The notes under the pieces were generated by a model. That model had not been told where the DNA came from and searched no databases. It worked only from the letters and a program-made list of their open reading frames with translations. DNA of 63,996 bases, counting the filler, from Anaerolineae bacterium (GTDB taxonomy: Bacteria; Chloroflexota; Anaerolineae; B4-G1; DUEL01): assembly GCA_041082215.1 (NCBI GenBank). It is 6 parts of 6 records of this genome, joined end to end, with 100 filler letters (N's around TTAATTAATTAA, not from the genome) between each part and the next. Parts side by side here need not be neighbours in the genome. Positions count along the whole stretch, not along the records: positions 1 to 24,762 come from JBDOIF010000101.1; 5 more parts are not named here. One strand, 5' to 3'. The number at the start of each line of letters is the position of its first letter. The stretch's first letter is position 1. Shown here in pieces: positions 6,768 to 47,488 of this stretch. A program made the translations under genes and the position numbers.

Positions 6768-7200
6768 TCAAGGCCTGTCAAGTAAGCACGGGGACTGTTC
6801 TCCCGCTGCGAGGATGCTTTCCCGGAAGTCCGAGAGATCAACCACCACCTGATCCCCCCCGCCGTTGGCCTCCAGGCGATGGCCGTCTGCATCGCTGTAA
6901 AGGCCGACCGCAAGATGGTCAACAGCGCACAGATCAGGGGGAGAAAGCTGGAGAGTGTGGACATCGGCGATGGATTCCCCCGGTGCCCAGCCCTGTGTCG
7001 GCCGTTTCCATCTGGCAGGGATCGCATCGGACTGGGCCAGAAGGCGGCCATCGGCAGCGAACAGGTGCACAAACACCTTGTAGCTCACCCCTATATAGGC
7101 ATCGGACCGCCAGACCAGTTTCAGCGTCAGCTCTCCGGAGGAGAAATCGGCTTCAAGGTCATACCATCGAATCGGACCTCGAAATCGGCCAACGGAATTC
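6768..7200 (-). pseudogene. Detached, out-of-frame C-terminal beta-sandwich domain of the upstream GT-C gene
   Basis: LTLKLVW..SYKVFVHLFAADGRLLAQSD..GWAPGE..VGLY is the domain ending most GT-C paralogs here; different frame from 7127..9055 and overlapping its end; boundaries approximate. Confidence 0.55.
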
Positions 7201-9055: not shown

Positions 9056-10704
9056 GGTCCTACCTCATAGACAAAGATAGAATACCCGATCTTCGCCTCC
9101 GGCTCCCGCGCCCGGAACCAGGCATAGAGGTCCGGGTTGGGCAACGCCGCCCCCACCAGGTTGCTCACACTGATGGCGTAGACCCCCGGCTCCGGAGCCT
9201 CCGGGTTGAAGGGCGGATTTTCCCACAGGGGAAAGCCATAGGGCACCCCCGGCAACAGGTCGTAGGCGATGCCATAGTACTCCGGCCGGGCGCTGCCAAA
9301 CCATGCCAGCCGTACCCGCTCCACCCCCTCCCGCTCCATCCACGCCCGCAACCCCTTCAGGTCCTGCCCCCAATCTATGTTGGAATCGGCCAGCACCCGC
9401 CACCCCCTCTCCGGGCCGCCGCCCAGAAAGTTGAAGAAGGCCAGGAAGTGCGGATAGATGCACAGGGTGGCGAGGGCGAGCCAGAGGGAAAGGACGATGG
9501 GGAGAAGACGTTGCACTCTACTGGATGATTGGGCTATTGGGTAATTGGGTAATTGGGTGATTGGGGGACTGGGGGGCTGGGGGAGGCGGGAGAGGTGGAC
9601 GAAAAGAAAGGGGAGAATGGGGAGGAGGTGGCGGTAGCCCAGGTTGAGGCGAGCAGCGGTGGAGGCCAGAAAGAAAAGCAGGGGCGGGGTCAGGAGAAAC
9701 AGGTCATCCCGCGTGGGGCGGCGGAACATCAACGCTGTGGCAATCAGAACCCCCGCCAGCGTCGCCAGGGGGGTCTTGACCCCAAAGGCGACCGGGAAAT
9801 AATACCACCAGCCCTCAGTGCTGACCTCACCCAGCAGGTAGCCGGGCCTGCCTCCACCCGCAAAGCCCAGCACGGCCCGGATCCCCCGCAGATAGGACGG
9901 AGCCGGAACGGGCAGGCCGGTCTCCCCCAGCGGCCCTACCTGGAAGCGGTAGGTCCCCCACACCACCAGCAGCCCGACCAGTCCGATCCCCGCCATCATC
10001 GCCGCCCGACCCGCCAGTCGGCGGAGCCGCCCCGGCCCGCCCGGCATCCCGTCCAGCAAAGCCGCCACAGCCAGGATAGGCCCGAAGACCAGGGCGGATA
10101 GTTTAGCGGCGAAGGCCAGCCCCATCGCCAGGCCCGCCCCCGCGATCCGCCACCCCGACGGGCGACGCAGCGCCTGCCACAGGACGTAGGCAGCCAGAAA
10201 GGCAAAGAAGGCCCCTCCCAGATCGGTGGTCGAGAGCCGACCGTGGGCCAGGATGTTGGGGTCGAGCGCACAGAAGGCCGCCGCCAGAAGCCCCCCCCAC
10301 GGGCCGAACCGCCCCGCCGCCCACCGGTAAACCAGCCCGATCAGCAGCAGCGTCAGCCCCATCACCGGCAGCCGGGCCAGGAAGACGATCATCTCCGCGT
10401 CGGCGTTGACCTCCCAGAGGAACAGGTCGGCAAAATGATACCATTCCCCCGCCTCCCACCAGATCGTATCCAGCGGCAGGTTGGGGTGGAGCAACCAATG
10501 GACCGGCAGGGCGCTGAGCAGGTTGACCAGCGGCGGGTGCTCGACGCTGAGCCGGGGGTCGCCGGTGCCCAGATAGGCCGCCCCCCGGGCGATGTGGTTC
10601 TGCTCGTCCATCGTCGGCGATTCCTGCACCGCGCTGGTCAGCATCAGCCCGAAAGCAGCCAGCATCAGCAGGACGGTCAGAAAGGGAGGAAGGGTTTGCC
10701 TCAC
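9052..10704 (-). CDS. GT-C membrane glycosyltransferase, paralog 7
   Basis: TMDEQNH, EHPPL, DPNILAHG, GYRHLLP, DSNIDWGQDL. Confidence 0.88.
   Translation of the reverse strand: MRQTLPPFLTVLLMLAAFGLMLTSAVQESPTMDEQNHIARGAAYLGTGDPRLSVEHPPLVNLLSALPVHWLLHPNLPLDTIWWEAGEWYHFADLFLWEVNADAEMIVFLARLPVMGLTLLLIGLVYRWAAGRFGPWGGLLAAAFCALDPNILAHGRLSTTDLGGAFFAFLAAYVLWQALRRPSGWRIAGAGLAMGLAFAAKLSALVFGPILAVAALLDGMPGGPGRLRRLAGRAAMMAGIGLVGLLVVWGTYRFQVGPLGETGLPVPAPSYLRGIRAVLGFAGGGRPGYLLGEVSTEGWWYYFPVAFGVKTPLATLAGVLIATALMFRRPTRDDLFLLTPPLLFFLASTAARLNLGYRHLLPILPFLFVHLSRLPQPPSPPITQLPNYPIAQSSSRVQRLLPIVLSLWLALATLCIYPHFLAFFNFLGGGPERGWRVLADSNIDWGQDLKGLRAWMEREGVERVRLAWFGSARPEYYGIAYDLLPGVPYGFPLWENPPFNPEAPEPGVYAISVSNLVGAALPNPDLYAWFRAREPEAKIGYSIFVYEVGP
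9521..9584. repeat. Degenerate 8-mer tandem array (TTGGGTAA-like x8) inside CDS
   Basis: ctggatga ttgggcta ttgggtaa ttgggtaa ttgggtga ttggggga ctgggggg ctggggga; encodes PQPPSPPITQLPNYPIAQSS. Confidence 0.8.
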
Positions 10705-13223
10705 CGCAGCACCACCCCGGTCAGAAACACCGCATCCCCCAGCGGCCCCCCGTCCGGCCCGGCCACCGGCAGACGAACGCCCGTCCCCAGGTCGTACATC
10801 CCCACCAGGAGAGGGATCGGCCCCTTCGGCGCATCGGCGGCGATGGGAAGGACGTGATCATCCCGCACCCACCGGCCCGGCTCCCAGCGGGTGGTGGGCC
10901 ACAGGCCACAGCCGGGGGCCGAATCGTGCTGGCCCCACATCGTCCCGTCGTACAGGTGGGTGAAGACCTGGTAGGAAACCTGCATCGGCTCCAGCGCCTC
11001 CCAGTATAGGGTCAGCCGCAGGCTCCCGCCGGGACGGGCATCGGCTGTGTCCAGCCGGTAGCCCACCAGCCGCACCTGCCCCCCCAGCACCGCCCCCACC
11101 GGCGTGACACCTTCTGGCGGGTGGGGAAGCACCGCCTCTGGCGTTATGCCAGCATCAAACCGGGCCTCGAACTCCTCAGCATCGTACACCGTCGGCTCCA
11201 TCTCCGAAGGACCCGGTCGGTACAGCCACAGCTTCGGCTCCCCACCCACCCGGATCACCGCCGCCAGGTGGTAATGGGCCTCCAGGTCCGTCCGATCCAC
11301 CGGCATCTCATCCTGCACCCGCGCGGCGATGAGGTAGAGGTCGGGACCCGGGCAGTAGGTCCGCTCCATCCCCCGCATATACCAGCGGGTGATCTCCTCC
11401 TCCTCGTTACTGGCGTACACCCCGTCCCGTTCCCCCTCCGCTACCAGCGCCCCCACCGCCTTCCAGCCGGCCCGATACGGGAAACCGAAAAGGCCGAAGC
11501 GGGGCAGTTCGTCGTAGGGGGTCCAGTAGATCGGGCTGCGGTGCTCCGGCCAGGTGCGGCGATATTCAGGAGTGTGATCCACAAACATCATCCAGACATA
11601 ATAGCCGCAAAGGACATAAAGGGCAAGGAGGGTTATGACCCTCACTCCCCTCCCGGCCCCCCCATAGAGGAGGGGGGTGAGGGTCCCGGCAGCCAGGAGA
11701 GAGGCGGCCGGGAAGACGTTGAGGACGTGGGTGCGGGGGTCCCACACCAGGAAGCAGTGGAAAAGAAAAGGCACGCCGAACCAGAGCCAGAGCGCCCGCT
11801 CGCCCGGCGTAATCCGATGGGAGAAAACGATAGCGCCCAGCCACACCACCACAGCAGCAACCGCACCGTAGGGGCCGGTCCTTGTTTCCGCCCCAGCCCC
11901 CGCCCACGTCGCCAGGACCAGGGCCGTCAGGCAGAGCGCAGGCACCGCGAGCCCCCACCGCCGGAACGGACGGAACCCGGCCGCCGCTACCAGCACCCCC
12001 AGACCGACCACGTAGTAGGTCGAGTTGTAGAGAGTGGTCAGCGGCAGAGTGGAGAGCAGATTATTGTAAACCGGCCCGCCCGTCCCCACCCGCTCCGCCC
12101 GCAGGTAGGCCAGGGTCTTGGCAAAGTTGGGATGCAGCGCGTAGGGCAGGTAGAAAAGGGCCAGCACCGTCGCCCCTATCGCCGCAGCCAACACAAGCGA
12201 CCTGCGTAGCGCAAGATGAATCTTGCGCCACGGAGAACACAGAGGGAAGCGGTGAGAAAATGTCCCTCCACCTATCATCTCTGTGCCCTCTGTGTCTCTG
12301 TGGTGCAAGCGCTGAACGATCAGGTAGAGCGCGGCGGGCAGGGCCAGCGATGCGTCGTAATGCGCCAGGAGGCCACAGGCCAGGAGACCACTCCCAGCCA
12401 GAAGCCACCTTTCCTCCCCTCGCTCCCGCCAGCGCCACACCGCCAGCAGCCCCAGCGCGGTCGTCATCAACACCAGGCTCTGGTACTGGACGATGCGGCC
12501 AAAGCCGACGAAGTAGCCGTTGATCGTCAGGATCAGCCCCCCGACGAGGCCGGCCTGTCGGTTCAGGAGATGGACGCCCAGAAGCGCGACCGCCAGCACC
12601 CCCACCACCCCCGCCATCGAGAAGGGAAGCCGGGCCTGCCACTCGCTGATCGTCCCGCTGAGGGCCCAGGTAGCGACGGGGGTCAGAACCTCCAGCGGAC
12701 CCTTCTGATGCAGGAACAGCGGGTCCGGATCGCCGGTGAGAACGCCAGCGGCCCGCACCATAATGACCCCCTCGTCGCCCTGGAACTCGCTGTAGCCCAG
12801 GTTGACGAGCCGGAAGAGGGAGGAAAGGCAAACCACAGAGACACAGAGAGCACAGAGGGAAGAAAAAGGTTTTTCCGAGGTCTTTATGTCCTCTCCGTGC
12901 CCTCCGTGCCTCCGTGGTAGGACAGCCGAAGCGACCAGCAGGTGGAGGCCCACGGCCAGGGGCCAGCCGGGGAAGGGGCCGGGGAGGTAGGAGAGGAGGA
13001 GCGTGAACAGCCAGGTGGTGCCGAAGCCCAGCCCCAGGCCCACCGCTCCCTCCTCCGCCGACGGCCACCGCCCACCGGAGAGGTGGAGACCCCAGGCCAG
13101 CCCCGGCAGCACCCAGAGCAGCAGGAAAGCCCCCCCGTACCTCAGCCCCGGCACCGCCAGCGCCAGGTCCGCCAGGAGCGTCAGGCCGAGCAGGGCCAGG
13201 GCCGGCTGATGCCTGCGGCTCAT
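10701..13223 (-). CDS. GT-C membrane glycosyltransferase, paralog 6
   Basis: ATG at 13223 (MSRRHQP) overlapping upstream stop; EFQGDEG, HQKGP, GRIVQYQS, C-terminal YQVFTHL domain; ORF-track upstream extension is shadow. Confidence 0.85.
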   Translation of the reverse strand: MSRRHQPALALLGLTLLADLALAVPGLRYGGAFLLLWVLPGLAWGLHLSGGRWPSAEEGAVGLGLGFGTTWLFTLLLSYLPGPFPGWPLAVGLHLLVASAVLPRRHGGHGEDIKTSEKPFSSLCALCVSVVCLSSLFRLVNLGYSEFQGDEGVIMVRAAGVLTGDPDPLFLHQKGPLEVLTPVATWALSGTISEWQARLPFSMAGVVGVLAVALLGVHLLNRQAGLVGGLILTINGYFVGFGRIVQYQSLVLMTTALGLLAVWRWRERGEERWLLAGSGLLACGLLAHYDASLALPAALYLIVQRLHHRDTEGTEMIGGGTFSHRFPLCSPWRKIHLALRRSLVLAAAIGATVLALFYLPYALHPNFAKTLAYLRAERVGTGGPVYNNLLSTLPLTTLYNSTYYVVGLGVLVAAAGFRPFRRWGLAVPALCLTALVLATWAGAGAETRTGPYGAVAAVVVWLGAIVFSHRITPGERALWLWFGVPFLFHCFLVWDPRTHVLNVFPAASLLAAGTLTPLLYGGAGRGVRVITLLALYVLCGYYVWMMFVDHTPEYRRTWPEHRSPIYWTPYDELPRFGLFGFPYRAGWKAVGALVAEGERDGVYASNEEEEITRWYMRGMERTYCPGPDLYLIAARVQDEMPVDRTDLEAHYHLAAVIRVGGEPKLWLYRPGPSEMEPTVYDAEEFEARFDAGITPEAVLPHPPEGVTPVGAVLGGQVRLVGYRLDTADARPGGSLRLTLYWEALEPMQVSYQVFTHLYDGTMWGQHDSAPGCGLWPTTRWEPGRWVRDDHVLPIAADAPKGPIPLLVGMYDLGTGVRLPVAGPDGGPLGDAVFLTGVVLR
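12206..12304. repeat. Composite in-frame insertion: GTAG-type REP abutting a CACAGAG palindrome
   Basis: gtagcgcaagatgaatcttgcgccac then ggagaacacagagg...ctctgtgccctctgtgtctctgtggt. Confidence 0.75.
12832..12918. repeat. In-frame CACAGAG palindromic element (87 bp)
   Basis: 26-bp arms accacagagacacagagagcacagag / ctccgtgccctccgtgcctccgtggt differing only by transitions. Confidence 0.85.
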
Positions 13224-14170
13224 CCCTCCCTCCGTCGCATCTCCCGCAGCGCCTGGACCCCGTACATCAGCCCGCCCATCAGCCCCGCCGCCGCCGAGAC
13301 GGCGTAGATCGAGAGGGACATCCCGGCAGCGGTGTTGCTGTCTATGCCAGCGGGGTTGAAGAGCGCCACCACGGTCCAATCGCGCACCCCCACACCGCCC
13401 ACCGAGATGGGGATCATCAGGCTGATGGAGATGAGGGGGGCTGTGATGAAGAAGTAGCCCAGGCTCAGGCCGATCCCCACCGCCCGCCCGCAGAGGAAGT
13501 TGATCAGGATGTTCATGAGATTGAAGACCAGCGAGATCCCCAGCGCCTGCCCCACCGCTCGCCAGCCGCAGCCAGTGATGGCGGCGTAGAGCCGCCCCAG
13601 GGGGCCGGAGCCGGCCAGCGAGAGCTTCTCCGGAAGCCAGCCGGTCGCCCGACGGAGCAGCCGCCCTTCCAGCAGCAACCCGCCAGCCAGCAGCCCGCCC
13701 CCCGCCACCCCCACCAGCAGCCACGTCAGCCAGGGGACCAGCAGCGAGGCGCTGAACGGCAGCGCAGCCAGACCCATCGCCATCAGCACCAGAAGGCCAG
13801 TCATACGGTCCACCAGCACCGTACCGACGGCGGCGGGGGTGGGGGTATCCTGGGTCAGCTCCAGCGCCCGTACCACGTCCCCGCCGAAGCCGGTGGGGAG
13901 GAAGCTGTTGAAAAAGGCCCCCACGAAGTAGAGATAGGCCAGCCGCCAGAAGGGAACCTGCAGGCCCAGAGCGCGCAGCAGGACCGCCCACCGTGCGGCG
14001 CGGATGACCAGACTGAGGAGGAAAAGGACAAAGGCGGCCAGGAGCAGCCGCAGGTCGGCGGCGCGGAGCACCGCCAGGGTCTGACTCAACCCGATCTTCC
14101 AGAGCAGGAAGCCCAGCGCGCCAGCACTGATCAGCACACGGGCCAGGTTCAGCCATTTCTTCCGGTTCAT
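13220..14170 (-). CDS. Flippase-like lysylphosphatidylglycerol synthase TM-domain (UPF0104) protein
   Basis: IRAARW, FFNSFLPTGFGGDVVR, VDRMTG, PISVGGVGVRD; ATG at 14170. Confidence 0.88.
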   Translation of the reverse strand: MNRKKWLNLARVLISAGALGFLLWKIGLSQTLAVLRAADLRLLLAAFVLFLLSLVIRAARWAVLLRALGLQVPFWRLAYLYFVGAFFNSFLPTGFGGDVVRALELTQDTPTPAAVGTVLVDRMTGLLVLMAMGLAALPFSASLLVPWLTWLLVGVAGGGLLAGGLLLEGRLLRRATGWLPEKLSLAGSGPLGRLYAAITGCGWRAVGQALGISLVFNLMNILINFLCGRAVGIGLSLGYFFITAPLISISLMIPISVGGVGVRDWTVVALFNPAGIDSNTAAGMSLSIYAVSAAAGLMGGLMYGVQALREMRRREG

Positions 14171-16464
14171 GGCATCTCTACCTCCAGCGGCAGCAACATC
14201 AGCCGGTCGGTCCCGGCTACGGGGAGACGGGGGCCGTCGGGGGGGCGGTAGAGCCCAACCTGAAGCGCATACCGTCCTGGCGGCGTCTCCGCCGGCACCT
14301 GCAGGGGATGGGAAAGGACGATCACATCTCCGGGTTCCAGCCCATCCGTTGCCACCGGCCAGCCGTCCCACTGGGCGATTGGCAGCCCATCCTCCCCCAG
14401 CAGGTGGACGAAGACGGCCAGCGGGGGAGCCAGCGGCCCCTCCACGCGCCAGTAAGTGGTCAGGGTGAAGGAGCCTCCGGCGGCCACGGCATCCGCAGAG
14501 CGGGTCCATCCAGTCAGGGCCGGGCCTTCCTGGAAAGAGGCGGGCAGCGGGACGGGCGTTCCGTCGGGAGCAGTGGGCACGCCGTCGGCGGGGATCTGTG
14601 TCAACAACGGGCGGGCGTCCGCCAGGGGCCCTTCGGCCAGCACAGCGGCGACGAGGGGGGAATCGGGCACTGGAGCCAGGGCCAGATAGCGGGCCGGGCC
14701 GCCAGAGGCCAGGATGAAGGCCCCGGCCCCGGCCCACTTGGTCACCAGCCGATGGCCCTCCCTCAACCCCAGTTCCTCTGCCGAAAGGCTCGAAACCTCC
14801 GGCCCGACCACAACGGTCCGGTCCACCTCAGTCCCCGGCGGGTAGTCCACCCTGTAGATCAGAATGGACCGCCCCGCCCGCGCATCCGGGGTCCGGTCGC
14901 GGAAGAAGGCATAAAGGTCCTGTGCCCGGTAGACCAGGCCCAGGTGGAGGCTGGTGGCGCTGATGGCGTAGGTGCCCGGAGGGGGCGTGCAGGGGTTGAA
15001 GCCGGCGACCTCCGGTCCCCACAGAGCGCGGGAAAAGCCGGGCAGCAGGCGGGCCCGGACGCCGTAGGCGGAAGGGTAGGCGCTGCCAAAATAGGCCAGC
15101 CGCAACTCTTCAGAGGGGTGGGATTCCTGATAGGCCCGTAACGCCACCAGGTCCTGCCCCCAATCCACGTTCATATCGGCAAAGATGCGCCAGCCGTTAT
15201 TGACCCCGCCGCCCAGCTCGTTTACGTAGGAGATGTGGTCGGGAAAGATGAGCAGCGCCTCCAGCCCGGCCCATACCAGAAGAAGCGCCAGCCCCGCACG
15301 GGCCAGACGGGCGCGGGGCCAGGCGGAAAGCGGCCCCACGGCAAGGGGGAAGGCAAAGAGCAGCACCGGCAGGATATAACGGTAGCCAATCTGGAGCGTG
15401 CTGACCGAGCTGGCGCCGAAGTAGAGAGCGGCCGGGGCCCACCACAGCGCCGTCTCCCGCCAGCGGCGGACGGCGTGAGCCAGTCCGTAAGCGAGCAGAA
15501 GCAACGTGGACAGCGGCGTCTTGAGGACAAATACGACGAGATAATAGTACCACCAGCCCGTGTCGCTGACCCGCCCCAGGAGATAGGTGGGCGTCCCACG
15601 GGCCACGCGCTGCCAGACGCGGGGGATGCCCCGCAGAAAGGTGGCAGCGGGCAGGGGGACCCCTCCCTCCCCCACCGGTCCGACCTCAAAGCCGAACACA
15701 GCCCAAACGGCCAGTGCAGCCACCCCGGCCATCCCCACCAGCGCCAGCAACCGTCGCCCCGGGGACAGGGCCTCCCCCCGGGCCGGGCGGTAGAGCAGGA
15801 CGACCAGGAAAAAAGCAGGGGCGAGGATGACGGCAGAGATCTTGGTCGCCACGGCCAGCCCTGCCGCCAGTCCCGTTGCCATAAGGTTCAGGGTGGTGGG
15901 CTTTCGCAGGTACTCCCCGAGCCGCCAGACGGCGACGAACATCAGCCCCGCAACCGGCAGGTCGTTGGTGATGAGGCGACCGTTGGCGACCACGTTGGGA
16001 TCGAGGACAAAGAGGGCCAGGCCCACCCAGGCGGCCGGCTCCCCAACGGTGGCGCGGATGGCGGCAAAGAGAGGCAGTCCAAAAAGCATCGTCAGCGCCA
16101 TCAGCGGCCGGCGGCATACCCGGATCAGGTCGGGAGCCTTCGCCCCGTTGTCCACCCAGAGATATTCGTCCACCAGCGCCTCGGCATCGCCAGCCTGCCA
16201 GGCCGGATGGTCAACGGGGAACGGGGTCAGATCGTCCCGCATCAGGAGCGGCAGCGCGGCCAGCACCTGGGCCACCGGCGGATGCTCCCAGCTCAGACGG
16301 GGGCTTCCTGTGCGGAGGTAGGCGTAACCGGAAACCAGATGGTATGTCTCGTCGAAGGCGGCCGACTTGCGGGCGCTGCTAATGTCCATCTGGACCCACA
16401 GAACCCCCAGCAGAAGGCACACCCCCGCCCAGCGGGCAGGCCGCACCAGCCTATCTTTCCTCAA
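14167..16464 (-). CDS. GT-C membrane glycosyltransferase, paralog 5
   Basis: AFDETYH, EHPPV, GYRYILP, DMNVDWGQDL, C-terminal AVFVHLL domain. Confidence 0.88.
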   Translation of the reverse strand: MRKDRLVRPARWAGVCLLLGVLWVQMDISSARKSAAFDETYHLVSGYAYLRTGSPRLSWEHPPVAQVLAALPLLMRDDLTPFPVDHPAWQAGDAEALVDEYLWVDNGAKAPDLIRVCRRPLMALTMLFGLPLFAAIRATVGEPAAWVGLALFVLDPNVVANGRLITNDLPVAGLMFVAVWRLGEYLRKPTTLNLMATGLAAGLAVATKISAVILAPAFFLVVLLYRPARGEALSPGRRLLALVGMAGVAALAVWAVFGFEVGPVGEGGVPLPAATFLRGIPRVWQRVARGTPTYLLGRVSDTGWWYYYLVVFVLKTPLSTLLLLAYGLAHAVRRWRETALWWAPAALYFGASSVSTLQIGYRYILPVLLFAFPLAVGPLSAWPRARLARAGLALLLVWAGLEALLIFPDHISYVNELGGGVNNGWRIFADMNVDWGQDLVALRAYQESHPSEELRLAYFGSAYPSAYGVRARLLPGFSRALWGPEVAGFNPCTPPPGTYAISATSLHLGLVYRAQDLYAFFRDRTPDARAGRSILIYRVDYPPGTEVDRTVVVGPEVSSLSAEELGLREGHRLVTKWAGAGAFILASGGPARYLALAPVPDSPLVAAVLAEGPLADARPLLTQIPADGVPTAPDGTPVPLPASFQEGPALTGWTRSADAVAAGGSFTLTTYWRVEGPLAPPLAVFVHLLGEDGLPIAQWDGWPVATDGLEPGDVIVLSHPLQVPAETPPGRYALQVGLYRPPDGPRLPVAGTDRLMLLPLEVEMP

Positions 16465-18521
16465 GGCGTCCTCACTTCAACAGGGGGCAACAACAGCCGG
16501 TCCGTCCCGTTCACAGGCAGACGGGGGCCGTCGGGCGCCCAGTACAGCCCTACCTGCAACGTGTAGGTTCCCGGCCCCAGATCGCCAGGCAGGTCCAGCA
16601 CGTGCTTCTGAACGATCACATCCCCCTGCATCCATCCGTGGGGAGGGCTTTCCAGGCCGTCATCCTGAACCCGCAGGCTGCCCTCGCCGTCCAGCAGATG
16701 GACAAAGACCTTCAACGCCTCCGCTGGAGGGGACTCCACCCGCCAGACAGTCAGAAGGACCAGACGACCGCCGGGGCGGGCGTCCTGTTCCACCCATTCT
16801 ACCCCCACCAGCGCCAGATGACCACCGAAGGAGGCCGGGATCGGGGCGGGGGTCCCATCCGGCAGCGTGGCCTCGACCCCGGACAGCCTCCTCTCGACCT
16901 CTGCCGCCTCTGGAAGGGCAAATTCAGAAAAGGGAGCCGCCCCCCACCCCACCTCCCGTCCCCCCCAGGCCAGCAGCCGCTGGCGCAGGTCGGCGTCGAA
17001 GGGGACCACCTCCGGCACGAGCAGCCGTCCGCCAGCCCCCGCCGGAACGACCAGCGTCTCGCGGGTGTCGCAGAGGCGGACGTGGCTCGTCTCCCCCCGC
17101 GCCGCCAGTTCGACCCCTGGCCCGTCCATCGTGTGCACCGAAAGCCCTGCCACCACCACCGGCACCTCCGACCCCAGCTCATCCACCCGATGCGCCGCAG
17201 CGGTGAGCGCCGTCTGGTAATCGAAGCGGACCACCTCGTCCCGGGGCCAGAGGAAGAAGTAGTCGCGGAGGGTGAAGGAAGCAAAAAGCAGGATGCAGAA
17301 TGCGGGAAGCAGGAGGCGAGTTGCAAGATGCAAGATGCGAGAGGCAAAATGAATCTGTATCCTGCCTCTTGCCTCCTCCATCCTCCCCCCCATCTCCGCA
17401 AGCGCGATGGCCGGGAAGGCAAAGACCACCACCAGCCCCAGGATGTCCCGGATCGAACTGGGAGCGACTGAGGTGACGACGCTGGGGACCAGGGAGCCGG
17501 CCAGCCAGATGAGCAGAAGGGCGTATCGGTGGTCCCGCCAGCGCCAGAGGGCGATCCCCACGCCGACGTAGAAGAGAAGGGCATTGAGCAGGTCGGTAAA
17601 GACCGGCCTTCCCGGCACGTTCTGCCGCGGCCAGGGATCGCCCCGGAAGGTGAACATCCCCAGGTTGGCCTTGAGGTTCTCCCACGCAAGGGAGGGGTCG
17701 CCTGCCAGGAGCCGATCCAGCGGTTCGCGGACCTCTGCCACACGGGTCTCGGCCCCTGGATGGGCGGCCAGCCAGAAAAGGAGCGGCGCGGCCACCGCCG
17801 CCGCGACGAAGGCCGCCAGCAGGAGATACCGCCACTGCCTCCGCAGGAGATCCCGGTGGAAAAGCGCCAGGTAGCCCACATAGGCGGCGAAGATGAAGGG
17901 GAGCACACGGGCGGCCATATAGGTGTAAAGGGAAAGCCCCAGAAAGAGTCCAGACGCCCCGTAGAGGCCGACCTTGTGTCGGCTCCTGTCCAACCCCCGG
18001 AAGAGGGCATACATCGCCAGGGCCGCCGTCAGCGGGAGCGCGATCGCCCGCAGTGCGACGCGGGCGTAGAAGAGGGGCCAGAACCCCACCGCCAGATAGG
18101 CCCCCGTCAGCAGCGCCACCCGCTGGCCGAACAACCGGCGCATCAGCGAGAGGGTCACCGCCAGCCCCAGCAGCCCCAGGGCAGCCGACGGATACCGTAG
18201 CCCCAGCCAGTGGTCCCCAAAGAGGGCCACCGTCGCCACCTGAAGGTAGTGGTAGAGCGGCTCGTGGCCGTAGGCAGCGGTGAAGTAGATGGCGTGATGG
18301 CCGCTCAGGATGTCCTGGGCGATCAGCCAGTGGGCCACCTCGTCGTGGGCCAGGCCCGGCGGCACCTCCCCCAGCGCCCAGAAGCGAAGCACGGCGGCCA
18401 GGAGCAGGATGAGGACGGAGGAGGACAACCACCGTAGAGTAGCAGGACAACTGCTCACAGTTGTCCTACCCTCCCCTCCGCGCTCTCTGTGTCTCTGTGG
18501 TTGCAAAGCTGTTCCGCTCAT
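16461..18521 (-). CDS. GT-C membrane glycosyltransferase, paralog 4
   Basis: PPGLAHDE, YGHEPLY, GLSLYTYMAAR, C-terminal KVFVHLLD domain. Confidence 0.88.
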   Translation of the reverse strand: MSGTALQPQRHRERGGEGRTTVSSCPATLRWLSSSVLILLLAAVLRFWALGEVPPGLAHDEVAHWLIAQDILSGHHAIYFTAAYGHEPLYHYLQVATVALFGDHWLGLRYPSAALGLLGLAVTLSLMRRLFGQRVALLTGAYLAVGFWPLFYARVALRAIALPLTAALAMYALFRGLDRSRHKVGLYGASGLFLGLSLYTYMAARVLPFIFAAYVGYLALFHRDLLRRQWRYLLLAAFVAAAVAAPLLFWLAAHPGAETRVAEVREPLDRLLAGDPSLAWENLKANLGMFTFRGDPWPRQNVPGRPVFTDLLNALLFYVGVGIALWRWRDHRYALLLIWLAGSLVPSVVTSVAPSSIRDILGLVVVFAFPAIALAEMGGRMEEARGRIQIHFASRILHLATRLLLPAFCILLFASFTLRDYFFLWPRDEVVRFDYQTALTAAAHRVDELGSEVPVVVAGLSVHTMDGPGVELAARGETSHVRLCDTRETLVVPAGAGGRLLVPEVVPFDADLRQRLLAWGGREVGWGAAPFSEFALPEAAEVERRLSGVEATLPDGTPAPIPASFGGHLALVGVEWVEQDARPGGRLVLLTVWRVESPPAEALKVFVHLLDGEGSLRVQDDGLESPPHGWMQGDVIVQKHVLDLPGDLGPGTYTLQVGLYWAPDGPRLPVNGTDRLLLPPVEVRTP
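17281..17387. repeat. Degenerate 7-mer array (GCAAGAT-like x10) with short inverted partner array inside CDS
   Basis: gcaaaaa gcaggat gcagaat gcgggaa gcaggag gcgagtt gcaagat gcaagat gcgagag gcaaaat, then atcctgc ctcttgc ctcctcc atcctcc. Confidence 0.75.
17961..17989. repeat. GTAG-type REP palindrome, in frame (RSRHKVGLY)
   Basis: gtagaggccgaccttgtgtcggctcctgt, decayed copy of 22056-22088. Confidence 0.75.
18427..18503. repeat. CACAGAG-family palindrome with nested GTAG REP at the 5' end of paralog 4
   Basis: caaccaccgtagag ... caggacaactgctcacagttgtcctac ... ctctctgtgtctctgtggttg. Confidence 0.65.
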
Positions 18522-18531
18522 CGGCCATCAC

Positions 18532-20531
18532 CTACGGCAGGATGTACCGGTCCCCAACAGGCCGACCCCCCTCATCAACAACCGCCCATCGCTCCCCCGT
18601 CATCGGGTCGTACAGGCCGACCTCCAGCCGGTATGGGCCGGCAGGCGCATCCGACGGCAGGGAGAAGCGGTGCAACTGCACGAACCGGTCCCCGGGCCGG
18701 AGCGTGGTGGGATCCACCCACAGCCCATCGTCCACCGCCACGGGGGTCTCTCCGGCGTAAAGGTGGGCAAAGACCGAAAGCCTTGGGCCGGCGTAAACCC
18801 CCGGCGGGGGCGGGTTGGCCACCACCGGCATCGGCGGCAGGTCGAGCGTCCCTATCACCTCCCACGCCAGCCACGCCCGCACTTCTCCATCCCCCTCCTC
18901 CAGCCGCCCGCCCGCCAGCGCCAGCCCGTTGCCGAAGGTAGCCACAGGGCCATCGGCAGGGACCGGGAGTTCGCTGGGGACGGGGTACAGGCGCAGTTCA
19001 CCCCTCTCCCAGAGGACCGGCCCCCTCAGCAGAGCCTCCAGCCGCGGATCGGGGTCGGGGAACGGGGTCAACAGGAGCAACGGACCCGGGCCGGACGGCA
19101 CCAGCAGCGCCCGCTCCGGGTTGAACAGCCGCACTCGCACATCCTCCCGCCGCAGGTCGTCGTCCAGCGCCAGTCGGTCCCACGGCCCCAGCAGTGCGCT
19201 TCCCACCGCCACATCCACAATCTCGGGGTGCGCGTCCAGATACCGCGCCACCTCCCGATAATCGGCCCGGTAGAGGAAGCGGACCATCCCCCGTTCCGGC
19301 CAGGTGACGAAGTAATCGCGGAGGTCGCGGGCGGAAGAGAAAAGAAACAGGAGGCAGAAAGCAGCAAGCAGGGGGCCTCTGACGTTTGACGCCTGACGCC
19401 TGACGCCTGACGCCTGACGCCTGACGCCTGACGCCTGACGCCCGCCATCCACTCCAGAGGTAGCGCCGCCAGCAGGTACGCTGCCGGCTGAGCCAGGATG
19501 GTGTGGCCCAGGCTGGCCGGGGGCAGGGTGAGAAGGGCCGGGCTGATGCCAGCGACCAGCCACAGGAGCAGGAAGCCATACTCGGGCCGACGCCACCGCC
19601 AGAGGGCCACCCCCAGCCCGAGGAAGAAGAGCACTGCACCGGTCGGGCCAAAAACCGGGCGACCGGGCAGGTTGTAGAGCCATTCGGGATCGCCAGTGGC
19701 GTGGAACATCCCCAGCGTCGTCAGCGCGTTCTCCACCAGCGGTCGGGGGTTGCCGGCCCGCAGCTCCCGCAGCGGCACAGAAAGCTCGGCAATACGGGCG
19801 TCCGCCCCGATCCCCCGCGCCGCCGCCTCGCTCCGACCCTGAGCGATGGCGACCCACAGGGGCAGGGTCACCAGCAGCGCCACCACCAGGGCCAGCAGCA
19901 GCGGCCGCCACCGGCGACGGAACTGCTCCCGGTGGAACAGGGCCAGGTAGAGGCCGAAGGCCACGAGGATCAGGGGGAGAAGCCGGGAGGCGGTGTAGGT
20001 GTACAGCGCCGCCGCCAGCAGCAGCCCCCAGACGAGCGGCCGCAGCCAGGCCGGGCGGGGCCGATTCGACCACCAGAGGTAGAAGAGCGCCAGGGTGGAC
20101 GGGAGCGTCATCGAGTGCCGCAGGCCAAACCGGCTGTACATCAGCGACCAGAAGCTGGTCGCCACAAGCGCCGCCGCCCCGAACCCCGCCGCCCGTCCGA
20201 ACAGTCGCCGGCCCAGCAAGCAGGTCAGTGGCACGGTAAGGGCGCCGCAGACGATGGAGAGGAGGTGTCCCCCCAGCGGATTCATCCCCACCAGCAGCAA
20301 CACCCCGGCGTGGAGAGTGTGATAGAGCGGCTCATGGCCCGAGGCGCCGGTAAAGTAGAGGGTGGGATGCCCGGCCAGGACCTCTCCGCTGAGGGCGTGG
20401 ATATTGATCAGCTCGTCGTCCCGCCAGCCGGGGGGGACATCCGCTGGCTGCCAGACCCGCAGTCCCCAGCCGATCAGCACCAGCAGGAGCGCAAGGCCCC
20501 ACTCCCAGAGGGAAAGGCGGCTCCTTCTCAC
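18532..20531 (-). pseudogene. GT-C membrane glycosyltransferase, paralog 3, frameshifted at a heptamer repeat tract (possibly phase-variable)
   Basis: GTG 20531 (PPGWRDDE, SGHEPLY, ALYTYTASR) reads in one frame to the tract; RDYFVTWP...SVFAHL...VGLYD continues in another frame to TAG at 18532; total 2000 nt, not a multiple of 3. Confidence 0.85.
19387..19442. repeat. Perfect simple sequence repeat (TGACGCC)8
   Basis: Eight exact units plus a degenerate tgacgtt at 19380-19386. Confidence 0.97.
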
Positions 20532-22549
20532 GGCGCTACCACCTCCACCGGGCAAAGCAGCACCCGATCGTCTACCGATGCCCCCTCTGCCAGCACAGAT
20601 AGCCGCATGCCATCCGCCTCCCGATAGGCCCCCACCTGAAGGTGATACCAGCCCGGTGGAGTCGCTTCGGGGACGGCGAACCGATGCACCTGCGCCACTA
20701 CATCCCCCGGATGCCAGTTCCAGGACGGCGCGTCCAGCCGGTCGGATTGGGCCAGCACGTGGCTCTCGCCGTCCAGCAGGTGGGCAAACAGCACCAACCC
20801 TTCCCGGGGTCCATCCACCCGCCAGAAGCTCACCAGCGCCACCTCCCCCCCCGGTTCGACGACGGGGGTCAGCAGCCGGTAGCCGACCAGCTCGACCCCC
20901 CCCTCCAGCGCGACCGGCAACTCCAGCGGGTGATAGACGAAATCGGCGGGCAGCATCTCCCCCTCGAACCATCCTGCCGGACCCTGCGCCCCCGCCAGGG
21001 CCTCACCGAGCGCTGCCGCCACATCCCACTGCAACACCGCCACCTCCGTCACCAGATCGCCGGGCCGCAGGGGAATCGGCGGCAGCGGACGGGCGTGCGG
21101 CGCAACCAGCGCCTCCAGCGCCGGGTCCAGCGGCACGGCGGAGGGGACGAGCAGCCGCGCCTCTCCGCTGGCGGGGAAGACCAGCGCCCCCCGCCCATCG
21201 AACCAGCGCAGGTCCGGGTCGGCCCGCCCCCGCAGCACCTCCATCGCCGAGGGATCGTGCGGCTGCCGGGGGTAAAAGGTGGAGATGGCAACCAGCCCTT
21301 CCGGCCCGGTCCCCTCCAGATAGTCCGCCTCCGCCGCCAGGTGGACGTGGTAGGCCACCCGCACGTCCCGGTGGTTCGCCCAGGTGAAGAAATAGGTATG
21401 CAACGTCTCTGCCGCGACCCAGGCGGCAAGGGTGGTGAAGACAACCGCCAGCGCCACAGGTGCGATGCGCCCCCCTCTGACCGACCGATGGAGCTCGACG
21501 AAGGGGAGGACGCAGAGGCCAAAGACGGCCGGTTGGGCGGCGATGGCCCGCAGCGACGAACTCTCCAGCCCGGTCACCAGCGCCGGAGCGACCCCCACCA
21601 GCAGCCACAGGAGGAGCAGGCGCGGCCCCGGCTGCCCCGGGCGGGCCAGCGCCAGGAGCACCCCCAGATAGAAGAGAACGGCCAGCGGTAAGAGAAGGAG
21701 GGGCTGGCCGGACAGGTTGTACATCCAGTGCACGTCCCCCCGGTGGCTGAACATCAGCGCCGCCTCGCCCATCCGTCGCAGGAGAAGGGAGGGATCGCCC
21801 GACCAGGCTGCCCGGAGCGGCGCGGCCAGCTCCGCCACCCGCACCTCCAGCTCCGGATGGCGGGCCAGGTAGATGAGCAGCGGCGCGGCGACTGCCGTCA
21901 TCACCGTCAGCATCGTCAGCGTCCCCCGCCAGCCTGCCCGGAAACGGGGGCGGTCGGCCCAGGCCAGGCTCAGCCAGAACAGCACCGGCACAAGCCAGAC
22001 CACGCGGGCGGGCATATACGTGTAGAACCCCAACCCCAACAACACCCCCGCCCCCACGTAGGGGCCGACCTTGTGTCGGCCCCTACGTCCATACAGCCCC
22101 CGCCAGAACAAAACCATCGCCGCGGTGAAAAGGGCCGGCATCGTGATCGAGCGCAGAATCTCCCGGCTGGTGGAAAGGGGCCAGAAGGAGACCGCCATCA
22201 GGAGCGCCGCACCCAACGCCCCTGCCTCCCCCAGCGGACCGCGCAGCGCCGCATACGTGAGCGCCACCAGCGCCAGCCCCCACACCGCCGACGAGAGCCG
22301 CCCCGTCGTCTCCCGCATCCCCAGCAATCCCACCAGCGGCGCAGTCACATAATCGTAGAACGGCTCCCGGCCATAGCTGCTGGTGAGGTAGATGGGACGC
22401 GCACCCTCCCGGATGCGGCGTGCGTCCTGCAGATGGGCCGCCTCGTCGTGGGTCACCCCCGGTGGAACCTCGCCCAGCCGTGCCAGGCGGAAAGCCGCCG
22501 CGACCAGGAGCACCCCAACCAGCGAGAAGAGCGCCGCCCTCCGGCTCAC
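20528..22549 (-). CDS. GT-C membrane glycosyltransferase, paralog 2
   Basis: PPGVTHDE, YGREPFY, GFYTYMPAR, C-terminal LFAHLLD domain. Confidence 0.88.
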   Translation of the reverse strand: MSRRAALFSLVGVLLVAAAFRLARLGEVPPGVTHDEAAHLQDARRIREGARPIYLTSSYGREPFYDYVTAPLVGLLGMRETTGRLSSAVWGLALVALTYAALRGPLGEAGALGAALLMAVSFWPLSTSREILRSITMPALFTAAMVLFWRGLYGRRGRHKVGPYVGAGVLLGLGFYTYMPARVVWLVPVLFWLSLAWADRPRFRAGWRGTLTMLTVMTAVAAPLLIYLARHPELEVRVAELAAPLRAAWSGDPSLLLRRMGEAALMFSHRGDVHWMYNLSGQPLLLLPLAVLFYLGVLLALARPGQPGPRLLLLWLLVGVAPALVTGLESSSLRAIAAQPAVFGLCVLPFVELHRSVRGGRIAPVALAVVFTTLAAWVAAETLHTYFFTWANHRDVRVAYHVHLAAEADYLEGTGPEGLVAISTFYPRQPHDPSAMEVLRGRADPDLRWFDGRGALVFPASGEARLLVPSAVPLDPALEALVAPHARPLPPIPLRPGDLVTEVAVLQWDVAAALGEALAGAQGPAGWFEGEMLPADFVYHPLELPVALEGGVELVGYRLLTPVVEPGGEVALVSFWRVDGPREGLVLFAHLLDGESHVLAQSDRLDAPSWNWHPGDVVAQVHRFAVPEATPPGWYHLQVGAYREADGMRLSVLAEGASVDDRVLLCPVEVVAP
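22056..22088. repeat. GTAG-type REP palindrome, in frame (RRGRHKVGPY)
   Basis: Perfect 14-bp arms acgtaggggccgac / gtcggcccctacgt, 5-nt loop. Confidence 0.85.
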
Positions 22550-24621
22550 GGCTCCACCACCTCCACGGGTGTCAGCAGGAGCCGGCTCTGAACTACCCCC
22601 GGCCCCACCTCAACCAGCAGCCGGACGGACGGGTCCCGCCGCAGGTAGGCGCCGACCTCCGGCACATAGAGGCCGGGGGGAAGATCGCCCGGCAGGGAGA
22701 AGCGATGGACCTGCAGGAAAGCCTCCCCGGCCTGCCAGTTCCAGGAGGGCACGTCCAGCCGGTCCATCTGGGCCACCACCGATCCGGCGGGGTCCAGCAG
22801 GTGGGTGAAGAGCACCACTTCCTCCGGCGCCGGCCCCCCCGTCTCCCACAGCGTCACCACCTCCACCACCCCGCCGGTGGGAACCCGGCGGGTTCGGAGG
22901 TCGTACCCCAGGAGCCGCAGAGACTCGCCGAACGCGACCGGCAGGTCGAGCGGCTCACATCCCGTCAGCGGCTCCTCTGGCGGGAAGGAAGCAGCCGGAC
23001 TCCAGCAGACCGGTTCCCCCATCATCGCAGCCTGTACCTGCGCCCGCGCTGCCGGGCCGTTCCACTGGTAGACCCCAATGGCGGGATCGAAGTCGTCGGG
23101 CCGCAGCTCGATCCGGTCTATGAGGACAGCGTGCGCTTCCAGGAGTGGCTCCAGCGCCGGGTCCGGCGGGGTGACGGCCGGGAGTAGCAGCCGCCCGGGC
23201 TCGGCAGGGAGGACCAGGCCGCCGCGACCGTCGAACCAGCGGAGGGAGATTCCCTTGTTTTGCAGCGTGGCGGTCACCACCCGGGGGTCGTGGAACTGGC
23301 CGGGAAAGAGGGTGGAGATAGCGACCGGCCCCTCGTCCGGGTGCTCATCCGGATACGCCGCCACTGCCACCAGGTCCACATGGCAATGGACCCGCACATC
23401 CCGGTTGTTGGCCCAGGTGACGAAATAGGTGTAGGCCGCCTCGACGCCGGTCGCCAGGAGGAGCAGCGCCGCCAGCCCGTAAACAGGTCTCCGCAGGGAG
23501 GGCCGGACCCGGCGGGCGAGGGCGCCGAACGCCAGCGCGGGGAAGAGGAAGACAACTGGTTGGGCCAGGATCGCCCGCAGGTTGACCGCCTCGATGCCGG
23601 TGGCGAGGGCAGGGAAGACCCCCACGCCGAGCCAGAGCAGGGAGAGGGCGGAGGCGGGCTCTCGCCAGCGGGCCAGGGCAAGCAGCAATCCGATGACGAA
23701 GAGCGCGCCGCCCACCGGATCAAAGATGGGGCGGCCCGGTATGTTGTAGGGGATGAAAGTATCCCCATAGATGAAGAACATCCGCGCCGCAGAGCGCATC
23801 TGTGCCCACAGCGGCCCGGGGTCGCCCGCTGCAAGGGCCCGCAGGGGCTCATCCAGCATCCCTACCCGGATGTTCAGTTCCGGGTGGGCATGCAGGTAGA
23901 GGTAAAGGGGGGCAGCCACGACGGCCGCCGTCGCCAGCACAAGCCCCATACGGCCCAACGCCCGCCACCCGCCGCGCCGGGTCACCAGCAGGTAGAAGCC
24001 CCAGAGGATGAAGACCCCCGGCGCCACACGGGCGGCCAGGTAGGTGTATTGAGCGATGCCCAGGAACAGCCCGCTCAGGAAGGCCGTCCACCATCGGGGC
24101 CGCCCGGGGGGGAAAAGGGAGCGGTGCAGCCAGTAGAGGGAGAGGGAAAAGAACAGCGGCAGCGTCACTGCCCGCAGCCCCATCCGGCTGGTAGTGAAGC
24201 CCCAAAATGAGAGGGCCAGCCAGCCGGTGGCGAGCAGCGCCTCGGGAAGATCGAAGAGCCGGCGCACCGTGGTGAAAGCCGCAGCCAGGAGCAGCATCCC
24301 CCAGAAGGCGGTGGTGAGCCGCATCGCGAAGGGAGTTGGCCCCAGCAGCGCCATCATCCCGGCCACCGAGTAGGGGTAAAGGGGTTCCTTGCCCTGGGCA
24401 ACGGGGAAGAAGAGGGGACGGATCCCCGCAAGCACCCCCGCCCCGTCGTAAACGTTGTTGGCCTCGTCGTGGGTCAGCCCGGGAGGCACCTCGCTCAGAA
24501 AGAGGAAGCGCAGCGCAGCCCCCGCCAGCAGAATGGAGAGGATCAGGGCCCATGCGGCAGGGGGGAGAGCTGACCGGGGCTGTATATGTCCCGCAACCGG
24601 AGTTCGACGGTCTGTAGCCAT
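22546..24621 (-). CDS. GT-C membrane glycosyltransferase, paralog 1 (first gene of operon)
   Basis: PPGLTHDE, QGKEPLY, QYTYLAAR, C-terminal LFTHLLD domain; ATG 24621 chosen because it lies just downstream of the promoter. Confidence 0.85.
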   Translation of the reverse strand: MATDRRTPVAGHIQPRSALPPAAWALILSILLAGAALRFLFLSEVPPGLTHDEANNVYDGAGVLAGIRPLFFPVAQGKEPLYPYSVAGMMALLGPTPFAMRLTTAFWGMLLLAAAFTTVRRLFDLPEALLATGWLALSFWGFTTSRMGLRAVTLPLFFSLSLYWLHRSLFPPGRPRWWTAFLSGLFLGIAQYTYLAARVAPGVFILWGFYLLVTRRGGWRALGRMGLVLATAAVVAAPLYLYLHAHPELNIRVGMLDEPLRALAAGDPGPLWAQMRSAARMFFIYGDTFIPYNIPGRPIFDPVGGALFVIGLLLALARWREPASALSLLWLGVGVFPALATGIEAVNLRAILAQPVVFLFPALAFGALARRVRPSLRRPVYGLAALLLLATGVEAAYTYFVTWANNRDVRVHCHVDLVAVAAYPDEHPDEGPVAISTLFPGQFHDPRVVTATLQNKGISLRWFDGRGGLVLPAEPGRLLLPAVTPPDPALEPLLEAHAVLIDRIELRPDDFDPAIGVYQWNGPAARAQVQAAMMGEPVCWSPAASFPPEEPLTGCEPLDLPVAFGESLRLLGYDLRTRRVPTGGVVEVVTLWETGGPAPEEVVLFTHLLDPAGSVVAQMDRLDVPSWNWQAGEAFLQVHRFSLPGDLPPGLYVPEVGAYLRRDPSVRLLVEVGPGVVQSRLLLTPVEVVEP

Positions 24622-24631
24622 AAACGGTTCC

Positions 24632-24660
24632 ATCATACCGCAACCGGTGGGGATTGACAA
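24632..24660 (-). promoter_or_regulatory. Sigma70-type promoter of the GT-C operon
   Basis: TTGTCA-17 nt-TATGAT on minus strand, 10 nt before ATG. Confidence 0.6.
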
Positions 24661-36693: not shown

Positions 36694-36768
36694 GGGCGAC
36701 CGGCAGGTCGCCCCTACAGGCCGGTCGCCCCTACAGGCCGGTCGCCCCTACAGGCCGGTCGCCCCTAC
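36690..36768. repeat. GTAG-type REP with three 17-bp tandem duplications of its right arm
   Basis: gtaggggcgaccggcaggtcgcccctac + (aggccggtcgcccctac)3. Confidence 0.9.
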
Positions 36769-36803
36769 AGGCCATCGGCCGCCCATCCCACTACAGGCCC
36801 CAT

Positions 36804-47356: not shown

Positions 47357-47488
47357 GGGCGACCTGCAGGTCGCCCCTACCAACGGCAACCCGCAGGTCG
47401 CCCCTACCAACGGCAACCCGCAGGTCGCCCCTACCAACGGCAACCCGCAGGTCGCCCCTACCAACGGCAACCCGCAGGTCGCCCCTAC
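47353..47488. repeat. GTAG-type REP followed by four 27-bp tandem units
   Basis: gtaggggcgacctgcaggtcgcccctac + (caacggcaacccgcaggtcgcccctac)4. Confidence 0.92.

Follow-up and report, generated by a model that had tools for sequence, protein, structure and literature searches.

The stretch of DNA considered here (63,996 nucleotides (nt), hereafter the window) joins six parts from six records of the metagenome-assembled genome (MAG) of an Anaerolineae bacterium of the phylum Chloroflexota (assembly GCA_041082215.1), and the first of these parts, positions 1-24762, carries on its minus strand a tandem array of eight genes that match the Pfam family PMT_2, neighbouring members being joined by 4-nt overlaps of start and stop codons or separated by short gaps. 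One of the eight (18532-20531), which encodes a membrane glycosyltransferase of the GT-C class, is broken into two reading frames, and the break coincides with a perfect run of eight copies of the heptamer TGACGCC. An earlier account of this DNA, made from the sequence alone (the original prediction), saw here a simple sequence repeat (SSR) that would switch the gene, and with it some cell-surface glycosylation, ON and OFF by changes in unit number. The neighbouring paralogues to which that account appealed are real, in that seven other minus-strand open reading frames (ORFs) match PMT_2, and it is likely that the locus is a credible candidate contingency locus of the SSR type.

On the plus strand, positions 19380-19442 consist of one variant unit, TGACGTT, followed by the eight perfect units, the coding strand of the perfect tract reading GGCGTCA eight times over; Tandem Repeats Finder (TRF) calls the array at 19379-19442 (period 7, 9.1 copies, 94% matches, score 114). 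The two-unit word occurs seven times in the window, every time inside the tract, against an expectation of 0.07, and none of 100 shuffles reached seven. The variant unit is a member of the family most frequent among the heptamer units of this genome, and next to it lies a second, degenerate array, which TRF finds at 19343-19371 (period 7, 4.3 copies, 73% matches). An SSR contingency locus is expected to have an uninterrupted tract, inside an ORF or a promoter, whose units are not a multiple of three in length, and such a tract is found here inside an ORF.

The gene starts at a GTG codon at 20531, overlapping the stop codon of the upstream paralogue, and the frame of its N-terminal half is open from there through the tract as far as a stop at 19068 (487 amino acids, aa), while the frame of the C-terminal half, already open a long way upstream, runs to a stop at 18532. 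The sequence from 20531 to 19443 comprises exactly 363 codons and that from 19386 to 18532 exactly 285, so a tract that is to join them must be a multiple of three in length: 56 nt leaves two over, and 63 nt (nine units, gene of 2007 nt) or 42 nt (six units, 1986 nt) fits. By this arithmetic the gene toggles between full-length and truncated forms, a single ORF being obtained only at 6, 9 or 12 units; 8 or 11 units lead to the stop at 19068, and 7 or 10 units into the third frame, with a stop at 18998. All three frames of the repeat are free of stop codons, and each gives the peptide GVRRQAS. Alignments with paralogues and orthologues place the frame change between '...LPLEWMAG' in the N-terminal frame and 'NVRGPLLAAFCLLFLFSSARDLRDYF...' in the C-terminal frame, and between these two the repeat alone is found.

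Across the whole 2-kb gene, neither half contained any further stop or second shift, and what is lost in the 8-unit state is the last transmembrane (TM) helix and the domain that follows it. Four single-nucleotide polymorphisms (SNPs) were seen among the sequencing runs described below, three of them synonymous; both of those in the C-terminal half (18742 and 19279, two sites only) are at third positions and synonymous in the C-terminal frame. The description of the gene in the original prediction has therefore stood up well: sequence, TRF and alignments agree on a frame switch at exactly the perfect tract, both halves are otherwise open and resemble their paralogues, the lengths proposed for nine and six units are arithmetically correct, and frames and alignments concur in the loss of the last helix and C-terminal domain at eight units, the extracytoplasmic position of that domain being a matter of analogy (see below). 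Further decay, which it had named as the sign of a pseudogene, was looked for in these 2 kb as additional lesions or nonsynonymous SNPs in the C-terminal half, and neither was present. Features of the locus, and related arrays elsewhere, are collected in Table 1.

Table 1. Features of the frameshifted glycosyltransferase gene, its paralogue array and related repeat arrays (positions in the window unless a contig is given)
Feature	Position	Strand	Remarks
Frameshifted GT-C (PMT_2 / GT39-like) glycosyltransferase gene	18532..20531	-	2000 nt; frames, Pfam
N-terminal 363 codons, transmembrane catalytic core with first-loop WRDDELIN	19443..20531	-	Frame, Pfam, orthologue alignment
Perfect heptamer tract, site of frame change, GVRRQAS repeat peptide	19387..19442	-	Sequence, TRF, alignments
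Variant unit TGACGTT (AACGTCA on coding strand)	19380..19386	-	Codon phase of C-terminal frame begins here
Degenerate second heptamer array, coding-strand CTGCTTN-like, encoding last TM helix GPLLAAFCLLFLFSS	19343..19379	-	TRF
C-terminal frame, 285 codons including stop: last TM helix and domain of ~260 aa	18532..19386	-	
Stop codon met by N-terminal frame at 8 units	19068..19070	-	487-aa product with junk tail of ~106 aa
Eight tandem PMT_2 genes	7127..24660	-	ORF map and Pfam; members 7127-9055, 9052-10704, 10701-14156, 14167-16464, 16461-18521, 18532-20531, 20528-22549, 22546-24660
Degenerate heptamer array, GCNTCNT-like	17276..17351	-	In frame; encodes last TM helix of paralogue 16461-18521
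Degenerate octamer array, NNCCCAAT-like, ~8 units	9520..9584	-	In frame; loop before last TM helix of paralogue 9052-10704
Long AAACGTC arrays	C123:24593-24648; C46:42452-42534; C80:4691-4766; C53:348-419		

The enzyme is recognizable from its N-terminal half, which matches PMT_2 (E 4.4e-08; 33.9 bits against a cut-off of 26.1) and also PMT (24.8 bits against 22.7); the C-terminal half matched no Pfam family, and no NCBIfam model or equivalog reached its cut-off for the enzyme. The acidic motif of the first loop, WRDDELIN, is present, with W36, R37, D38, D39 and E40 invariant in 47 orthologues, and by analogy would be catalytic. For the closest full-length orthologue, P0004 (663 aa, 78% identical to the N-terminal half), a structure was modelled from a 47-sequence alignment (predicted local distance difference test, pLDDT, 82.4; predicted template modelling score, pTM, 0.81), and a Foldseek search with this model gave 37 PDB matches at E <= 0.001, to AglB, STT3, ArnT, PglB, Pmt4, ALG9/12 and Emb/Aft (AglB 7e9s_A, E 4.2e-09; ArnT 5f15, E 5.7e-08; Pmt4 9i5k_A, E 6.7e-06). 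The predicted fold is thus that of a GT-C enzyme and, together with the PMT_2 match above its cut-off, it sustains the class that had been assigned to the gene. Fold and first-loop acidic motif are common to this family and to the solved GT-C enzymes (AglB/PglB/STT3, ArnT, PMT, Emb/Aft), although identity to them is just 12-16% and the C-terminal domain here belongs to no Pfam family.

In the P0004 model the penultimate helix spans residues 341-365, and the repeat-encoded peptide opens one long helix (370-406, within which the segment matching 19343-19379 falls) that continues into the last membrane helix and is followed by an alpha/beta and beta-sandwich domain. The C-terminal domains of solved GT-C enzymes lie outside the cytoplasm, and the repeat peptide is arginine-rich, so it seems likely that the repeat faces the cytoplasm and that the C-terminal domain of about 260 aa is extracytoplasmic.

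How far can the number of eight units be trusted in a genome assembled from a metagenome? Exact suffix-prefix overlaps between contig ends (110 in all, each pair being counted in both directions) measure exactly 147 nt in 90 cases and 133 nt in eight, which points to a last assembly word of about 147 nt, long enough to cover the whole 56-nt tract and both flanks. A series of word lengths stepping by 14 (21...49, 63...147) is one that can be derived from these two overlap lengths, and no collapse window fitting it yields 56-60 nt. The assembly also succeeded, elsewhere in the genome, with tandem repeats whose exact self-match runs measure 68, 80, 84, 96 and 133 nt. Read depth was taken from Logan contigs (k=31) of four public runs, labelled 'hot springs metagenome', in which the contigs of both flanks break off after 30 nt of the tract; no contig spans it, so unit numbers come from depth alone. 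The repeat-cycle contig comprises five 31-mers, and its expected depth relative to the flanks is 3x for seven units, 4x for eight and 5x for nine. Run X1, possibly the source sample, matches the window at 100% in its flanks, and gave a depth of 58 for the repeat contig and 16.1 and 15.9 for the flanks, a ratio of 3.6x that fits eight units better than nine (about 1.5 standard deviations away, on a rough estimate) and ten or more far worse.

If the assembly or consensus were nevertheless at fault, the dominant allele would truly have nine (or six) units and the gene would be intact, and there is a pattern of lengths that would suit this explanation. Of the perfect heptamer tracts in this genome, the five longest (C15:19387-19442, the tract under discussion; C123:24593-24648; C80:4691-4747; C53:348-405; C46:42475-42534) are all 56-60 nt long (8.0-8.6 units), with none of 42-55 nt and none above 60 nt, and a word of about 147 nt gives no explanation of this. 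Moreover, a scan of species-representative genomes for TGACGCC in four or more units found at least 120 loci, and among the matches listed eight units are over-represented (56 loci with four units, 25 with five, 14 with six, three with seven, seven with eight and two with nine). Both patterns are to be expected from collapse at a 55-nt assembly word, and nine units are not strictly at odds with the depth in X1. Such a collapse is rejected as the principal explanation on account of the 147- and 133-nt overlaps, the resolution of runs as long as 133 nt and the 3.6x depth; an artefact therefore appears very unlikely, and the frameshift is probably real. Assembly collapse had been named in the original prediction as one outcome that would refute it, and that danger has now largely receded.

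The gene is unbroken wherever else it could be followed. In a large protein search the 487-aa product was matched at 100% by its own entry (P0003) and next at 78%, the best matches being 663-681 aa long and the homologues bearing the names of Anaerolineae or Chloroflexota MAGs; no same-species allele emerged, nothing other than its own product exceeding 78% identity in a search from which near-identical records may be omitted. Orthologues (E <= 1e-100) are present in 16 of 40 related genomes, and all 16 have a single open frame and no internal stop, two being cut by contig ends; the present genome (G000) alone is split, its match to P0004 falling into two segments (residues 2-392 and 362-663). 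A scan of metagenomes added 80 loci (best identity 70%), plus one partial match at 78%. The loop that holds the repeat was delimited by the motif pair HTxLAQP ... RDLxDYF, to which 34 of 98 loci (L001-L098) conformed, the other 64 being left out; two of the 34 are G000 itself, frameshifted, and the remaining 32 all keep one frame. The comparison of orthologues that had been suggested as a check has thus been made, and in both sets (16/16 and 32/32) the reading frame is continuous.

These relatives also reveal the history of the loop. The closest orthologues (P0004-P0007, at 75-79% identity) carry the repeat peptide in frame (KRQASGV-RRLASCL-LLLASCL in P0004; KRQVSNV-RRQASGV-RRPASPI-LRLASSA in P0007), from which it follows that the array is old at this site and that its frame has been maintained elsewhere. 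More distant orthologues have other heptamer families, with periods such as IRHSPFA or SQIANRK. When periods of 3-12 were compared, seven was the best in 22 of 30 distinct loops and in 40 of 299 control windows of the same size from the same genes, mean period-7 self-match being 0.426 for loops and 0.289 for controls. Across this orthologue family, decayed 7-nt arrays make up both the loop and the last membrane helix.

The tract is also part of a wider population of repeats. Genome-wide, TRF reported 159 period-7 rows, compared with 33 of period 6 and 90 of period 8, and the period-7 rows merge into 149 arrays with a few recurrent unit families (AAACGTC, 25; AACCAGC, 24; ACGTATG, 12; and others). 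By a crude gene caller based on GC content at third codon positions (GC3), which misses some genes, including the split GT-C gene, these arrays fall into 55 between genes, 39 at a gene end (94/149 together) and 55 within ORFs. The long AAACGTC arrays begin at a stop codon or immediately after one, AAACGTC being in every case the coding-strand sequence. In one intergenic array GGCGTCA and AACGTCA units occur together, which indicates that the unit of the GT-C tract is a variant of the main family. Perfect AAACGTC arrays of at least four units occur at seven loci in G000 and at one locus each in two of the 40 relatives; the remaining 38 have none. Cyanobacterial short tandemly repeated repetitive (STRR) heptamer arrays are likewise many per genome, of few unit families and mostly outside genes; array number, families and placement are alike in the two cases, whereas phylum and unit sequences differ, and here several arrays are coding and one disrupts a gene.

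Could other genes be broken by such repeats? Twenty-nine arrays are flanked by coding-like sequence in different frames, and as candidates for a wider set of SSR-broken genes most of them had to be discarded: in 24 of the 29 the upstream stop lies inside the array or no more than 11 nt beyond it, as at ordinary gene ends. Among heptamer and octamer arrays the GT-C tract alone has a coding-like run-on of more than 100 nt (309 nt). The other exceptions among such sites are one of period 16 and three G8/C8 runs; the latter (C7:8129-8136, C95:52000-52007 and C170:13094-13101) have coding-like flanks that do not share a frame, the upstream stop being met 34-54 nt past the run, and may be further frameshift sites or sequencing errors.

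Beyond this genome, none of the at least 120 public loci listed for TGACGCC in four or more units had a GT-C orthologue beside it. Perfect tracts of 12-18 TGACGCC units were seen in unrelated genomes, for example in Catellatospora and Streptomyces isolates (L110, L139, L130, L171), and from this it appears that the heptamer is prone to expansion in many high-GC bacteria. The window also contains tandem repeats of other periods, one of 27 nt at 47358-47488 (4.9 copies, 98%) and one of 17 nt at 36702-36773 (4.2 copies, 98%), which share a common GGTCGCCCCTAC core and each lie just past the end of a plus-strand ORF; further period-27 arrays are present on contigs C16, C95, C141, C148, C156, C45 and C1.

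There is a hint in the depth data that the tract is not of one length everywhere. Run X2, from another study, has flanks 99.8% identical to those of the window at about 47x, and its repeat contig stands at 338 against 47.1 and 48, a ratio of 7.1x that would correspond to about 11 units, likewise out of frame; such repeat depths are upper bounds, other loci with the TGACGCC unit being present in the communities. Run X6 gave 4.6 for the repeat contig and 4.4 for the flank (about 1x), which would point to a shorter tract if coverage were not too low to rely on, flank depth in X3 and X6 being only about 5x. It is suggested by these figures that unit number may differ between populations.

We think it probable, with due reserve, that a real, slippage-prone SSR holds this GT-C gene OFF in the dominant genotype and constitutes a mutational ON/OFF switch for one GT-C activity. 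A ribosome translating the 8-unit gene would leave the tract out of frame and stop at 19068, and the truncated product would retain the membrane catalytic core, without the last helix and C-terminal domain, and so be OFF. Slipped-strand mispairing would then change the tract in 7-nt steps, and one tract length in three (6, 9 or 12 units) would restore an enzyme of about 665 aa, the outcome being ON/OFF switching of one surface-glycosylation activity. There may also be a polar effect: in the 8-unit gene the N-terminal frame terminates 547 nt ahead of the next start and, because the genes look translationally coupled, this early stop may lower expression of the five downstream paralogues. Slippage in vivo, a mixed population, reversibility, polarity, topology and benefit are what we infer from this arrangement.

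Several observations weigh against a switch, and several suit its main rival, a pseudogene of recent origin: on this view a repeat that was tolerated has slipped and disabled one of eight redundant paralogues, the OFF state is drifting and any reversion has no role. Eight tandem PMT_2 genes amount to redundancy, and with the seven others intact the cell could perhaps do without this copy. The genome has about 150 heptamer arrays, a family mostly outside coding sequence, and the tract is just one of them and no dedicated device; there is no genome-wide 'phasome', only a single heptamer or octamer array of the frameshift type. The long hypermutable tract is not conserved, orthologues keeping only decayed arrays in which the longest perfect period-7 stretch is at most 36 nt in all 32 delimited loci. 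As to depth, the ratio in X1 is not firm against nine units, and the X2 depth may include TGACGCC repeats of other organisms, loose ends showing that such loci exist in these communities; if X2 does have 11 units, the gene is OFF in both of the well-covered populations, which fits a dead gene equally. On the other side, there is no second lesion in 2 kb, both SNPs of the C-terminal half are synonymous (two sites only, it must be said), the gene is intact in all of the matched relatives and delimitable loci, and a perfect 56-nt tract implies ongoing turnover, making a stable state unlikely. On this evidence we regard a pseudogene as rather unlikely, though it deserves to be taken seriously. It is also conceivable that the 8-unit gene is read through by programmed recoding, -1 ribosomal frameshifting or transcriptional slippage giving the full-length enzyme; the required shift does equal -1, and this is its sole support. 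Inspection by eye found no X_XXY_YYZ slippery site and no homopolymer run in or beside the tract, and the fact that every orthologue is in one frame implies that there is no conserved recoding signal, so that recoding seems extremely improbable. What survives of the contingency locus originally envisaged is therefore the tract, the frame arithmetic, the GT-C identity and the paralogue array, with the qualification that the tract is no device dedicated to this gene.

The frameshifted gene is not the only member of its array to have been shaped by short repeats. The degenerate arrays at 17276-17351 and 9520-9584 (Table 1) occupy the same protein position in their respective paralogues as does (TGACGCC)8. 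Taken further, this might mean that 7-8-nt arrays are a standing generator of protein sequence, the linker and last helix having been rebuilt in orthologues and in at least three of the eight paralogues, and that the array considered here is one that is still active and a true contingency switch, affecting by polarity up to six coupled genes. It would then be the first case among free-living thermophilic Chloroflexota of SSR phase variation of surface glycosylation, with phage or grazing pressure as a plausible driver; we put this extended reading forward only tentatively, as possible but doubtful. The contig that holds positions 1-24762 (C15) stops some 100 nt beyond the last gene of the GT-C array, a break that may reflect a repeat. 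Elsewhere on it, a minus-strand ORF (1644-2774) with matches to Arrestin_N, Arrestin_C and Spo0M has as its neighbours a gene for a DUF6125 protein and the 3' end of one for valyl-tRNA synthetase.

Three published systems invite comparison. In Neisseria, phase variation of pglE, the gene for a glycosyltransferase of protein O-glycosylation, is controlled by an intragenic heptanucleotide repeat (PMC7157529), and there, as here, a 7-nt SSR lies inside a glycosyltransferase ORF and its unit number sets the frame; pglE, however, specifies a soluble-type transferase of a host-adapted proteobacterium, in isolates of which its switching has been measured, whereas we are dealing with a GT-C membrane enzyme, a tract in a TM linker and switching that is deduced. 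In Haemophilus influenzae, a homologue of HI1369 has (AACAACC)13 in one case and eight units in another, the latter with a truncated ORF, and (AATTTTG)14 lies inside hmw1a and is associated with a frameshift (PMC2651432). Truncation at eight heptamer units is common to the two organisms, and H. influenzae strains differ in unit number; the genes in question there are for outer-membrane receptors or adhesins and were compared in several strains, in contrast to the single MAG and depth hints available to us. Finally, the gtr operons for O-antigen glucosylation of Salmonella and P22 are phase-variable through Dam and OxyR (PMC2909390). If switching here is true, the two would be alike as phase-variable, membrane-bound surface glycosylation modules that use lipid-linked sugars, with the difference that the gtr switch is epigenetic and transcriptional and the present one an SSR frameshift.

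As a mechanism, then, glycosyltransferase phase variation driven by SSRs is established, as the original prediction had it, the Neisseria pglE heptanucleotide being a case in point, and novelty cannot be claimed for the mechanism; it can for the phylum, the habitat and the enzyme class. Searches combining phase variation, SSR or STRR with Chloroflexi or Anaerolineae found no publication on SSR switching or heptamer arrays in Chloroflexota, and a survey of SSRs is at phylum level only (PMC4060949). It is likely that the organism, the hot-spring habitat, the GT-C class and the TM-linker position are new as far as the literature was searched, the mechanism being already known.

To our knowledge, SSR contingency loci are known almost exclusively from host-adapted pathogens. 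If eight units are fixed, the gene is simply a young pseudogene in a redundant array. If the proposed switch is true, it would extend stochastic switching of surface glycans to free-living thermophiles and to GT-C membrane transferases, and would open the way to a simple read-count assay in existing metagenomes. The TM linker and helix derived from decayed heptamer arrays provide a concrete case of protein segments born of non-triplet microsatellites.

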